Source: Candidatus Bathyarchaeota archaeon (GTDB taxonomy: Archaea > Thermoproteota > Bathyarchaeia > 40CM-2-53-6). Taken from it: a stretch of DNA of 28,084 nt. Positions 2,482 to 6,503 of this stretch are shown here, one piece after another. Below the pieces are notes generated by a model. That model was not told the DNA's origin and ran no database searches. It saw nothing but the letters and a program-made list of their open reading frames with translations. The translations under genes were made by a program, and so were the position numbers. Where the stretch lies: NCBI GenBank assembly GCA_005888675.1, contig VBBA01000146.1, positions 1-28,084 on the forward strand, read 5' to 3'. Position 1 is the first letter of the stretch. Every line of letters begins with the position of its first letter.

Positions 2482-3246
2482 TTATGCGATGACCTCCGGC
2501 TCTTCTTTCTCTTCGGCCACTTCTCTGATTTGAGAGTACTTGTTTTTCAACGCCTCACGTTGCATAGTGTGGAGGGTCTTACATGCTTCTATTGCCATAT
2601 TGAGCCCTTTTTCGAATTCAGGGAGGGTCAGGATTCCGTCCATTTGAAGTAACGTGACGAGATTTGAGTTTGGCATGTAGGCAACCGGTAGATCTGCTTC
2701 TCCCTGTTTGTCTTCGATATCTGACAAGTCAAGCGCGAGCTGACCTTGCACTTTCCCAACCGCACATGCGGCCACAAGCTCTCTCATCGGGATCCCAGCA
2801 TCTGCGAGTGCGAGAGATGCGGCAGTGATTCCCGCGCATCTTGAGCCTCCATCAGATTGGAGAATCTCGACGAATAAATCGATGGTTGTTCTTGGGTAGA
2901 GATCTGTGAGGACCGTTGGTTCCAATGATTCTCTAATTACCTTGGAGAGTTCTAGTTCTCTTCGAGAGGGTGCAGGAGATTTTCTCTCGTCTACCGAAAA
3001 TGGTGCCATGTGATATCGGCATCGTATCACGGCCCGATCCGGTAGGGCAATGTGTTTGGGGTGGGCCTCGCGAGGACCGTAGACAGCAGCTAGAATCTTG
3101 TTCTTTCCTTGCTCGATGTAGGCTGATCCGTTGGCCTTGTCTAAGATTCCTACTTCCAGTCTCACTGGTCTCAGCTGGTCTAGCCTCCGACCGTCTACTC
3201 TGAGGCCTTTCTCGTCCAGTAGTTTCTCAGGGTGCTTGTTTTGCAA
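2482..3246 (-). CDS. rrp41: Exosome complex exonuclease Rrp41
   Basis: [24 protein letters not shown], phosphate-binding DGGSR, catalytic [10 protein letters not shown]. Confidence 0.97.
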
Positions 3247-3940
3247 CTTCCTCTTCCATCCTAGGTGATTTGGCTATCATTTCTCTTATCCTGTCCGTTA
3301 AACCTCTCATGTGAGCCTCTCTCTCTATCATGTATATGGCTTCAACTGCAACTCGCTCGCCTTCAGGAGATCGTCCCCAGACGAGGACGATCCCGTTCTG
3401 GCCGACAGAGATCTGGCATCCTGTCTCGCGCTTTAGCATGCTGATCATCGACCCCTTCCGTCCAATTAGCCTTGGTATCTTTGCTGCTTGGATCTGGATT
3501 ACTCTGCCAGAAGAAACCTTTCCGAGTCCAGGCCCTTTCGCGGTTAGTAGTGGGTCTCTGGTTCTGTCGAACGATAGTATTTGGGCCATTACCATGTCTC
3601 CAACATCGAACATTTCCGACAAGTCTCGTCTCCGCGGTCCTCGTGGACCCTCGGTCTCCGACGCTGGAAGCATTGCAACGTATGGTGCGAGAATATCGAC
3701 GGTCCAGCCTGACAGCCCGATGTCCATGACCCGACCACCGACAATATCCCCGACATGTGGTATGTATCCCCCCTTCAACGGAACAACCGAAACCCTGTTG
3801 CCATCCACTTCTAACAGACCGACACATGCCGAATAGATCTGGTTTCCAATCTTGTACGAATTTTCTCCCAGCAAGTGGTCTCCCTCGGCCAGTAATTCGC
3901 CTGGGGCGACGACTTGTCTTGGTTCGGCTAACACTACCAT
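3227..3940 (-). CDS. rrp4: Exosome RNA-binding protein Rrp4 (S1+KH)
   Basis: [10 protein letters not shown]-terminus, [11 protein letters not shown] motif [21 protein letters not shown]. Confidence 0.96.
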
Positions 3941-3959: not shown

Positions 3960-4649
3960 TTAAGTCAAAACCTTTGTTTGGATTGTCCCTTGGGTAACCT
4001 TGCCTACTCGATCAATGAAGCCCCCGTACATTCCCGCGGGCATCTCGACGACAGCTACCAATGAACCGTCCGTCTGCCATTCTTCGCGGCTGACGTTTCC
4101 GTAACTTTTCAATACATTGAACGCTCGTGCGGCAAACTCTGGAAATACCTTGACTGCAATGCGCATCTGCTCCATCTTCAACGGGATTACCGGTCTAAGC
4201 TGGTCGATGATGTTCTTCGCCTGTTCTTCAGCACTCTTGAAAGGGTCAATCGAGATCCGTATCTGCTCCATGGCTTGTTCAATCCGCAACGGAGGATGAG
4301 GCGCTCCAGTCCTCGGGTCAATGGCATTTCGGACAATTATCGCGACTATCTGGCGTCTCTTGTCTTCGACTAGCTTCCGTCGCTGATCAGTAGTAAGTTG
4401 AAGTTCTCCACTTTTCATTATCTCCTCGGCGACCTTGATCGCATCGGCGCTGCCGAAGGCTTTCTGCAGTTTTTCTGTAGATGCTCTTGTGCCCTTTCCA
4501 GCGTCAGAGTAGATCTCCTCTATGAGTAGAACTTGGCTCAACGCGATCTGTTTTCCCAACTTGTATTCTAGTGCAGGCTCAGGCTTCACGAGTATCTCGA
4601 AATGATCGGGACCCTTTGCTAGTCTCGCGGTAGTGTACTTGTCACTCAT
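3960..4649 (-). CDS. Ribosome maturation protein SBDS/Sdo1
   Basis: HFEILVKP, GELQLTTDQRR, AIDPRTGAPHPPLRIE motifs; canonical position. Confidence 0.96.
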   Translation of the reverse strand: MSDKYTTARLAKGPDHFEILVKPEPALEYKLGKQIALSQVLLIEEIYSDAGKGTRASTEKLQKAFGSADAIKVAEEIMKSGELQLTTDQRRKLVEDKRRQIVAIIVRNAIDPRTGAPHPPLRIEQAMEQIRISIDPFKSAEEQAKNIIDQLRPVIPLKMEQMRIAVKVFPEFAARAFNVLKSYGNVSREEWQTDGSLVAVVEMPAGMYGGFIDRVGKVTQGTIQTKVLT

Positions 4650-5395
4650 TTGCTAGTCGGGGCCTTTCTGCCAGCATCCAGTCGCTTGATATACTTGTCA
4701 ACTTCTTCCACCGGTAGTTTCCGGAATTTTCCAGACTCTCGATCTATGAGCGCGACTCGAATCTTTTGAGGCTCTGCTTTGCCCTCGAGCACTTTCGTCA
4801 TACATTTTAGCCCAAGGGCTATCGAGTCGTCAAGCGACAGATCATCGCGATATTCTGCCTCAAGAATTTCGTTGGCCGCATCCCCGCCTGCGCCGATTGC
4901 CCAAGCTCGGTAGGCAAAGAATGCTCCACTTGGATCTGTCCAGAAGAGTCTACTCCCCTTCTTGTCAACACCCCCGAATAACATCGAGATACCGAAGGGA
5001 CGAACTCCAGCGTGCTGCGTGTACAGTTGCTTGATCTCGCCTATTCGACGAGTCAGGATTTCTATGTCGATCGGCTCGTCATACATGAGCTTGTTGCTCT
5101 GAGCGTAAATCCTTGCTTGGTCTACAAGAATATGAGCGTCACAGCTGAGGCCGGCGACGGCGGTTCCGACGTGGTCGTCTATCTGGAATATTTTCCACAT
5201 GAAGGACAAGTCTTGAAGCTTAGATGCTGATCTTTCTTCGGCCGCGAGTACAACTCCCTCTGGGCATGCGATTCCCAATACTGTCGCTCCTCTTTTGACA
5301 GTCTCGCTGGCGTATTCGACTTGGAATAGTCGACCGTCGGGGGAAAATACAGTTATGGCCCGATCGTAAGCCCCGGGCACTGCGAACATGGACAA
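4646..5395 (-). CDS. psmA: Proteasome subunit alpha
   Basis: YDRAITVFSPDGRLFQVEYA signature, GVRPFG. Start is TTG 5395 or ATG 5389. Confidence 0.98.
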   Translation of the reverse strand: MSMFAVPGAYDRAITVFSPDGRLFQVEYASETVKRGATVLGIACPEGVVLAAEERSASKLQDLSFMWKIFQIDDHVGTAVAGLSCDAHILVDQARIYAQSNKLMYDEPIDIEILTRRIGEIKQLYTQHAGVRPFGISMLFGGVDKKGSRLFWTDPSGAFFAYRAWAIGAGGDAANEILEAEYRDDLSLDDSIALGLKCMTKVLEGKAEPQKIRVALIDRESGKFRKLPVEEVDKYIKRLDAGRKAPTSK

Positions 5396-5439: not shown

Positions 5440-5456
5440 TTACTAAAAACCTTTCC
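5440..5456 (-). promoter_or_regulatory. BRE/TATA promoter for the psmA-exosome operon
   Basis: Minus strand GGAAAGGTTTTTAGTAA (purine-rich BRE followed by T-rich TATA), ~45 nt upstream of psmA. Confidence 0.6.
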
Positions 5457-5489
5457 TGATTCCATTTCCTGTTGCTAGACTTGTTTTTT

Positions 5490-5554
5490 GGGGTCGGCCC
5501 GTCGCTGAGGATATCATCTTAACAATCAATCTGGGACTGGCTTCGTCATCCCCC
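5490..5554 (-). ncRNA. Box C/D guide sRNA (predicted 16S rRNA h44 2'-O-methylation guide)
   Basis: Minus strand GGGG-G-AUGACGA(C)-13 nt-UUGA(D')-8 nt-AUGAUAU(C')-13 nt-CCGA(D)-CCCC. Terminal 4-bp stem has K-turn geometry. The D guide AGCGACGGG(C) is complementary to GCCCGUCGCU of TACK-type 16S rRNA. Confidence 0.8.
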
Positions 5555-5575
5555 AAAGTACTTTGGTGCGGATCG

Positions 5576-5585
5576 ATATATTATT
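5576..5585 (-). promoter_or_regulatory. TATA-like element for the C/D sRNA
   Basis: Minus strand AATAATATAT, centred ~26 nt upstream of the predicted sRNA 5' end at 5554. Confidence 0.5.
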
Positions 5586-5615: not shown

Positions 5616-6062
5616 CTAGGACCCGAGCTCTTCTAGCTTCTTTGCGATAAGGTTCGTTATGTTCTTGTTGGGAATTCCTTGAAGGTCGAATGATATCTCT
5701 ATTCTTATTGGTTCCGTCTGGCCAAGGATTATGTTACCGTTGACTGCTTCTTGTTTGTCGATTCTAATGTGCAAGCGACCTGACTCGTCTAGATAGCCTC
5801 TTAGGTTGTCGATCATCTCTGTTTGATCTACGAGAGATAGGCGCCTCCAGAAGTAGACTACGAAACCTTCCGCTCGGGATCTGTTTGAAATCGGTAGGCG
5901 TACGGTCTGGATCTCGTTTCCGTAGTGTCCGCTGGCTCTTCGTTTCTCTGGTCGCGCTTCTGCATCTGGACCTACCGCTTGCATAGCGAAAACGATCTTA
6001 TCCGAATCTTCAGTCGCATGTACTATTGCGGACAATGTCACTTTTGCAATTCTTGGATTCAT
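5616..6062 (-). CDS. DUF54 / COG1325 RNA-binding protein (exosome-operon associated)
   Basis: AIVHATEDSDK, GHYGNEI and LHIRIDKQEA motifs. Start moved to ATG 6062 because the 6164 ORF-track start overlaps the divergent pth2 start and promoter region. Confidence 0.88.
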   Translation of the reverse strand: MNPRIAKVTLSAIVHATEDSDKIVFAMQAVGPDAEARPEKRRASGHYGNEIQTVRLPISNRSRAEGFVVYFWRRLSLVDQTEMIDNLRGYLDESGRLHIRIDKQEAVNGNIILGQTEPIRIEISFDLQGIPNKNITNLIAKKLEELGS

Positions 6063-6128
6063 TTGATGAAGCCGTAATTGACGGGCATTTGACGTTAAAT
6101 ATTTGGCTCTATTGAGGGTGAGACAGCT

Positions 6129-6503
6129 ATGACTGGCAGTCCAGAGAACGGGCGGTATAAGCAAGTTCTAGTTGTGCGATCAGACCTTAAGATGGGGAAA
6201 GGCAAGATCGCCGTTCAGTGCTCACATGCTGCGGTTTCAGCTTCTGAAGAAGCGCGAAAGTCGTCTCTTGACTGGTGGAGGACATGGATGCATGAAGGTC
6301 AATCGAAAGTAGCGGTTAAGGTGAGCGGGCTTTCACCAATATTAGATTTGGAAAGAAGATCTCGCGAGAATGGGCTACCATTCTATGTCGTTAGAGACAT
6401 GGGTCTAACACAGGTTGAACCTGGGACGGTGACCTGCATCGGTATTGGTCCCGGTCCGGTTGTCAAGGTGGATTTGCTAACCGGGGACCTGCCCCTTCTT
6501 TAG
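6129..6503 (+). CDS. pth2: Peptidyl-tRNA hydrolase Pth2
   Basis: KQVLVVRSDLKMGKGKIAVQCSHA, DMGLTQVEPGTVTCIGIGP. Confidence 0.96.
   Translation: MTGSPENGRYKQVLVVRSDLKMGKGKIAVQCSHAAVSASEEARKSSLDWWRTWMHEGQSKVAVKVSGLSPILDLERRSRENGLPFYVVRDMGLTQVEPGTVTCIGIGPGPVVKVDLLTGDLPLL

Follow-up and report, generated by a model that had tools for sequence, protein, structure and literature searches.

The Locus and the Element

The window, by which we mean the whole 28,084-nt stretch of DNA that was analysed, carries on its minus strand a gene for a PF01877 RNA-binding protein (5616-6164), followed by the genes for proteasome alpha (psmA, 4646-5395), SBDS (3960-4649), and Rrp4 (rrp4, 3227-3940). A 65-nt element lies between the PF01877 gene and psmA, on the same strand (5490-5554). 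Because these genes flank the element on its own strand, the exosome superoperon setting named in the original prediction holds.

Read on the minus strand from 5554 to 5490, the element is 5'-GGGG G AUGACGA AGCCAGUCCCAGA UUGA UUGUUAAG AUGAUAU CCUCAGCGACGGG CCGA CCCC-3'. A GGGG arm (5551-5554) and a CCCC arm (5490-5493) form the terminal stem. The C box, AUGACGA (5543-5549), has C rather than U at position 5, and the D box, CCGA (5494-5497), has C rather than U at position 2. Each box thus departs once from its consensus (RUGAUGA and CUGA, respectively), and the two positions face each other at position 3b.3n of the K-turn, the 3-nt bulge of which is GAU (G5550-A5549-U5548, 5548-5550). The internal boxes are D', UUGA (5526-5529), and C', AUGAUAU (5511-5517), with an 8-nt linker between them (5518-5525). 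Both guides are 13 nt long, making the spacers symmetric and one nucleotide longer than the canonical length of about 12. The D' guide, AGCCAGUCCCAGA (5530-5542), has C5534 at position 5 and a predicted bulged A at position 9 (A5538); the D guide, CCUCAGCGACGGG (5498-5510), has A5502 at position 5 and A5506 at position 9, which varies among homologs. The stem, the four boxes, and the two 13-nt spacers described in the original prediction were all confirmed. The limits of the element, with a 5' end near 5554 and a 3' end near 5490, are those of the block conserved in relatives. This is a genuine and conserved box C/D sRNA that had previously gone unannotated, an assignment that draws support from conservation, covariation, the AT box upstream, and the genes for the RNP proteins.

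No ORF of 40 amino acids or more overlaps the sRNA, as had been said. An Rfam scan of the window gave no family at the gathering threshold; the best sub-threshold hit, sR20, scored 13.4 bits against a threshold of 44, and we discarded it as a meaningless match. When the MAG was scanned with a loose C/D pattern, a stem of 6 was found at the sRNA locus only, and the other six matches resembled chance. Unconstrained RNAalifold predicted a small hairpin unrelated to the C/D fold, because the program does not model K-turns.

A TATA-like promoter element, AAUAAUAUAUC (also read as AAUAAUAUAU), lies at 5575-5585 on the minus strand, where it had been proposed, and is centred about 26 nt before the start of the sRNA. 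In 57 distinct upstream regions of homologs, an AT-rich box of the TATTA, TTATA, or TTTTT type recurs about 27 nt upstream of where the RNA begins, while the flanks otherwise differ. The conserved AT box supports a promoter belonging to the sRNA itself. The original prediction had also pointed to a perfect 14-bp palindrome, CCAAAGTACTTTGG, overlapping the 5' end. It is present at 5553-5566 and is the sole one of that length in the window, but 1.7 such palindromes are expected by chance in 28 kb and it is absent from relatives, so we do not regard it as a meaningful feature.

Two soil metatranscriptome RNA-library runs hold the psmA region, in contigs that end at 5486 and 5400 and leave the sRNA outside; assembled contigs cannot show a 65-nt RNA. 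The end at 5486 may be an assembly break, since small branching contigs begin at 5486 in a DNA run. A BRE/TATA-like motif, GAAAGGTTTTTA, is found at 5440-5456 on the minus strand and at the matching place in relatives. It follows the sRNA at a distance of 30-45 nt, precedes the start codon of psmA by about 50 nt, and probably serves as the promoter of that gene. As an RNA-library contig reaches 5486, upstream of this motif, transcription from the sRNA promoter may run on into psmA.

Conservation and Covariation of the Fold

With a 111-nt query, blastn found homologs in all 36 of the same-family genomes and in several other families of the order, and the block conserved among them coincides with the proposed ends of the RNA. 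We aligned 37 distinct homologs of the order with MAFFT (alignment A1) and built a covariance model (R1) from the alignment. The box GA dinucleotides are invariant in 37 of 37 sequences. The guides are nearly invariant, and the linker between D' and C' varies in both length and sequence, with a covarying stem in relatives. Only the GA of the D' box is fixed, its first two letters being variable, and the C' box reads AUGACGA or AUGAUGA in sister genera. The model scores the sRNA at 75 bits across 5489-5555 and, in a class-wide sample of 151 Bathyarchaeia genomes, finds one copy in each of 65.

The structure specified for the pairing test comprised the terminal stem, 3b.3n, 4b.4n, and the linker stem. 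In the MAFFT alignment 87% of cells pair, compared with 58-65% when the partner columns are slid by one. In the class-wide alignment, compensatory changes were seen in 10 of the 10 modelled pairs, including all four pairs of the terminal stem, and the observed covariation score was reached by none of 500 shuffles; this alignment was fitted to the model and leans towards the structure, whereas the MAFFT alignment is independent of it.

Spacers of 13 + 13 nt are found in most of the host's order and 13 + 12 in family f4, while most Bathyarchaeia outside the order have 12 + 12. The site directly upstream of psmA is kept in much of the order. Among 13 hits examined from other families, psmA lies within 1.5 kb in none, and a PF01877 gene is nearby (about 1.1 kb) in six.

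These observations bear on whether there is an RNA gene here at all. A conserved intergenic DNA element, such as a regulatory site of psmA, could in principle resemble C/D boxes, and both the absence of an Rfam match at the gathering threshold and the position of the sRNA outside the metatranscriptome contigs (uninformative as these are for an RNA of 65 nt) would agree with it. A DNA site, however, would not account for compensatory changes in the stems, for fixed boxes and guides around a linker of variable length, for guide content identical to that of known sRNAs, or for occurrence away from psmA in other orders. We consider this explanation extremely improbable.

In genus g5 we observed a second, degenerate copy of the sRNA about 20 to 200 nt from the intact one, for example L119:287-357 (+) beside L119:375-453 (-), and two copies about 200 nt apart occur in L052. 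In the second copy of g5 the C'/D half is lost, and what is left is the C box together with a D' half that is diverged or truncated. It looks like a decaying duplicate.

The K-Turn and the RNP Proteins

Box C/D K-turns normally have U.U at 3b.3n. The original prediction held that the C and D boxes of this sRNA co-vary so that C.C replaces that pair. The geometry was right, and both positions are C in this genome, but the relatives mostly carry Watson-Crick pairs. Position 5 of the C box is C, G, or A within the order and U, G, or A elsewhere, and it covaries with position 2 of the D box. Across the order the counts are G-C 12, A-U 7, C-G 7, G.U 2, and other 9, and across the class U-A 16, G-C 8, G.U 6, A-U 2, and other 4. 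As the alignments indicate, the sRNA family has a covarying Watson-Crick pair at 3b.3n, with C.C, the state of this genome, in the minority.

A K-turn in which a Watson-Crick pair follows the tandem G.A does not fold in Mg2+ alone and depends on a protein of the L7Ae family (McPhee et al. 2014, PMC4382518). With a Watson-Crick 3b.3n, therefore, the K-turn of these sRNAs should fold only on L7Ae binding. The K-turn of U4 snRNA, in which 3b.3n is G-C (PMC4382518), is like that of the present family in having a Watson-Crick pair after the tandem G.A, although U4 is a spliceosomal RNA.

The MAG encodes the proteins of a C/D RNP, namely fibrillarin (PF01269, 306 bits), Nop5 (PF01798, 224 bits), and L7Ae (PF01248, 101 bits). 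The fibrillarin and Nop5 genes are adjacent and on the same strand (G000 contig C286:303-1948), which is the usual archaeal arrangement.

The D' Guide and the 23S P-Loop

This MAG contains neither its own 16S nor its own 23S gene, so all pairings rest on the rRNAs of relatives. The 16S and 23S sequences searched came from four same-family genomes (G010, G015, G017, and G022), each being paired with its own guide. As a control, guides were shuffled and a site was counted when positions 2-8 paired with at most one G.U, followed by three more pairs either in register or after a 1-nt bulge. Under this bulge criterion, some site in 16S + 23S turned up for 4-9% of the D' shuffles and for 10-14% of the D shuffles. 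The bulge model was framed after inspection of the data and, at these rates, the statistical weight lies in the comparative data and not in this genome alone.

Several rRNA genes of Bathyarchaeia far exceed in length the Rfam models of 1478 and 2987 positions: the G022 16S (L041) has 1848 nt, the G022 23S (L046) 4805 nt, and the G017 23S (L044) 3360 nt, and the 16S genes of G037, G043, G042, and G050 have 1650-1740 nt. The excess length suggests introns or large insertions.

The original prediction had named no target for the D' guide. When the guide was scored against 16S and 23S with RNAduplex, however, the lowest-energy site was the P-loop in all four relatives (-18.8 to -20.9 kcal/mol), in a duplex that bulges one nucleotide of the guide. 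The site, in helix 80, reads AGUU(C/U)GGCUGGGGCGGCA. In this register the duplex has 7 + 3 bp, formed by guide positions 2-8 (U7 as a wobble with G) and, beyond the unpaired A9, by positions 10-12 (CCG) with GGC; position 5 (N+5) faces the second G of UGGGGCG, E. coli G2251. The guide sequence GCCAGUCCCAG is invariant in the host's order, and the P-loop sequence was confirmed, unchanged, in nine genomes, the four of the same family and five further ones. Outside the order, the spacer is 12 nt long and the guide, GCC-GUCCCAG, is contiguous with CUGGGGCGGC over 10-11 bp, from which we infer that A9 is an insertion into an ordinary P-loop guide.

Like other archaeal P-loop (G2251) guides, this one includes a stretch complementary to CUGGGGCGG that sets N+5 on its second G. 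Its core, GCC(A)GUCCCAG, is identical, but for the inserted A, to that of three sRNAs derived from RNA-seq, Pca sR36, Tte sR107, and Iho sR410, which share GCCGUCCCAG (PMC4644070 supplement), and methylation of G2251 (alignment position G2520) has been predicted in three of seven archaea (PMC4644070).

Several other candidate targets were examined and rejected. A 23S site near E. coli 2085, CUUGUCGCUGG, forms a good duplex in G017 and G022 but varies without a change in the guide. In G010 the 23S 5' hairpin CCCGUCGCGGAU offers 11 bp, but it is a variable hairpin that is absent from the other three genomes, and we attribute the match to chance. The 16S sites near 411-428 and 733 (CCCGACGGUGAGG) can pair only if the target is bulged or N+5 is mismatched, and they show no conservation alongside the guide. 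For the D' guide, a segment downstream in h44, UCUGGCUCUGG, leaves two central mismatches and lies in a variable region. No convincing match was found among the 18 tRNAs that aragorn reports in the MAG, several of which are doubtful.

The D Guide: 23S Helix 93 or 16S h44

According to the original prediction, the D guide directs methylation of U1406 in h44, the decoding centre of 16S. The 16S sequence given there, CCGCCCGUCGCU, proved correct for the relatives. Their 16S reads CCGCCCGUCGCUCC and forms nine contiguous Watson-Crick pairs with the host guide (with G1 and A9), placing N+5 at U1406. The match to h44 thus stood, while the target assignment did not fare as well when the homologs were compared, since the 8-9 bp formed with h44 in the host's family shrink elsewhere, most homologs having at most 8 bp and leaving CUC unpaired.

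We found a second site in 23S helix 93 (H93), 5'-ACCGUCGCGAGAC-3' (E. coli 2589-2601), where the match is CCGUCGCGAG and N+5 is U2593. Presumptive E. coli numbers for this site were derived from the anchors U2552, U2585, A2602, and C2606. They agree with the numbering in PMC4644070. In the H93 register positions 2-8 pair, position 9 is left out, and positions 10-12 (CUC) pair with GAG, so that 7 + 3 bp are formed, as in the D' duplex.

Among the 37 homologs of the order, positions 10-12 of the D guide (CUC) are invariant and positions 2-8 are conserved except in family f6. By contrast, any of the four bases can stand at position 1, position 13 also varies, and position 9 holds A or U or is missing, which is what one expects of a base left unpaired. 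With position 9 bulged, all homologs of families f1, f5, and f9 form 10-12 bp with H93, except L030 (9 bp), compared with 5-9 bp for h44. In family f4, which has no nucleotide at position 9, there are 9 contiguous bp with H93 and 6 with h44. Outside the order, D guides with a 12-nt spacer, CUC(G/A)(U/C)GACGG, form about 10 contiguous bp with H93 through positions 2-11.

Three families differ in detail. The f17 D guide has CUU and retains a wobble with G2597. In f6 the GCGAC block stands one nucleotide further from the D box, and N+5 would be G2592, at the edge of the helix. The f14 D guide has CAC in place of CUC and forms just 7 bp with H93.

The 7-mer CCGUCGC is common to h44 (1403-1409) and H93 (2590-2596). 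Its last base, 16S 1409 and 23S 2596, is U in both rRNAs of G124 and G160 and C in both in the other genomes in which the two sites were read. The guide has A8 where 23S has U2596 (G124 and G160) and G8 where it has C2596 (G063 and the host's family). This covariation speaks for pairing with one of the two sites but cannot separate them, because 16S 1409 likewise changes from C to U in G124 and G160.

Could the D guide nevertheless methylate 16S U1406, alone or beside 23S U2593, in this lineage? The duplex energies are nearly equal in G022, the guide of which is identical to the host's (h44 -17.7 versus H93 -18.2 kcal/mol), and it is precisely G1 and A9 that lengthen the pairing with h44. In G124 and G160, where 16S reads GUCGUU and the guide has A8, 8 bp are kept. 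Methylation of a nearby h44 residue, A1408, has been predicted in two archaea (Dennis et al., PMC4644070). However, most homologs have U in place of A9, a base other than G (U, A, or C) at position 1, or both, and cannot exceed 8 bp, and f4 has 6; the invariant positions 10-12 never pair with h44, which reads UCC or CCA there; and position 9, which should be a fixed A if h44 were the target, varies. The match is accounted for by the 7-mer. We therefore think it unlikely that U1406 is a target. The h44 match is best explained by the occurrence of CCGUCGC in H93, two flanking chance pairs in the genus adding the rest, and on the comparative sequence evidence the D guide fits H93 better than h44.

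In f32 g72 (L181, L182, and L189) and in some members of f17 (L192 and L195), the P-loop D' guide is kept and the D guide has been swapped for unrelated sequence, for example CUACAAGGCUGG. Such replacement is guide turnover within one sRNA family.

Guide replacement could also be read as a sign that the sRNA acts chiefly as an rRNA-folding chaperone or on a non-rRNA target (tRNA, mRNA, or another ncRNA), its rRNA complementarity being partly or wholly incidental. Dual guides have been proposed to bridge segments of rRNA (PMC7994747), and when 37 genomes were searched for an exact 11-mer target of the D' guide, several yielded only the sRNA gene itself. An incidental match is hard to reconcile, however, with the P-loop as the top site in four of four relatives and with a core shared with published P-loop guides, and the tRNA search described above is unfavourable to a tRNA target. 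A chaperone role, moreover, would supplement methylation guidance and not substitute for it. We regard a principal function of this kind as very unlikely.

Discussion

Our preferred interpretation, to which we assign a probability of roughly 70%, is that of a dual-guide sRNA of a soil Bathyarchaeon with its own TATA promoter, in which the D' guide would target 23S G2251 and the D guide 23S U2593, each with position 9 bulged. The RNA would be transcribed from the TATA-type promoter between the PF01877 gene and psmA and would assemble with L7Ae, Nop5, and fibrillarin into a methylation RNP. Pairing of the D' guide with the P-loop sequence 5'-CUGGGGC GGC-3' would lead to 2'-O-methylation of G2251, and pairing of the D guide with 5'-CCGUCGC GAG-3' of helix 93 to that of U2593. 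Both predicted targets are in domain V of 23S, in the peptidyl-transferase centre. In the host's order each guide would have gained one nucleotide at position 9, giving the 13-nt spacers, and the extra nucleotide would bulge out, leaving 7 + 3 bp. What was directly observed is the sequence, its conservation, the covariation of the fold, the complementarity to the rRNAs of relatives, and the protein genes; from these we infer that the RNA is transcribed, that an RNP assembles, that the extra nucleotide bulges, and that the two sites are methylated. To our knowledge, it is not established that archaeal C/D RNPs act on guide-target duplexes containing a bulge.

A more far-reaching version of this history is possible but doubtful in our view. 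Both guides would have gained 1 nt at position 9, so that the spacers grew from 12 to 13 nt with no change in the rRNA targets, and, in addition, the D guide of this genus, with G1 and A9, would have become bispecific for U2593 and U1406.

P-loop ribose methylation is universally conserved. In yeast the P-loop Gm is guided by snR67, and in bacteria Gm2251 is made by the stand-alone enzyme RlmB; the modification is the one predicted here, obtained with another guide RNA or with a protein-only enzyme. For helix 93, yeast snR73 directs Cm2959, which we place near E. coli 2590, at a distance of 3 nt from the predicted U2593. We know of no report of methylation at U2593 itself.

The closest resemblance is to sR410 of Ignicoccus hospitalis (Dennis et al. 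2015, BMC Genomics 16:632, Additional file 1). It has the same D' core, GCCGUCCCAG, including the U that wobbles with G2253, together with a non-canonical C box, GUGAGGA, a CCGA D box (3b.3n being G-C), and a GGGG/CCCC terminal stem. It differs in having no extra A in the D' guide and in its D guide, GUAGCGAACCGC, and it belongs to a hyperthermophilic crenarchaeon; the likeness is known from the guide, the boxes, and the stem. Pyrobaculum calidifontis sR36 and Thermoproteus tenax sR107 share GCCGUCCCAGU followed by CUGA, but they carry the P-loop guide at D and not at D', with canonical boxes, shorter spacers, and other partner guides. The sRNA is thus of an ordinary kind, a member of a widespread group of P-loop guides, and its oddities are the Watson-Crick 3b.3n and the parallel one-nucleotide insertions in its guides.

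The family offers several cases for the study of how much geometry the C/D RNP tolerates: the Watson-Crick 3b.3n, the parallel guide insertions, and the 7-mer common to h44 and H93. If the RNP works with a bulged guide nucleotide in both helices, these sRNAs would be a natural experiment on the ruler of a 12-nt spacer and at most 10 bp. If the D guide is bispecific, one guide would serve both ribosomal subunits through CCGUCGC. The case also carries a lesson for annotation, since complementarity of 9 bp to a famous site may be the by-product of a better match elsewhere.

A search of a library of papers returned no reports of C/D sRNAs for Bathyarchaeia, a major uncultured lineage of soils and sediments, to which the present work adds an unannotated guide for rRNA modification. 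It suggests that in Bathyarchaeia the conserved Gm2251 of the P-loop is RNA-guided, by a core shared with Thermoproteales and Ignicoccus, and a second methylation is predicted in helix 93.
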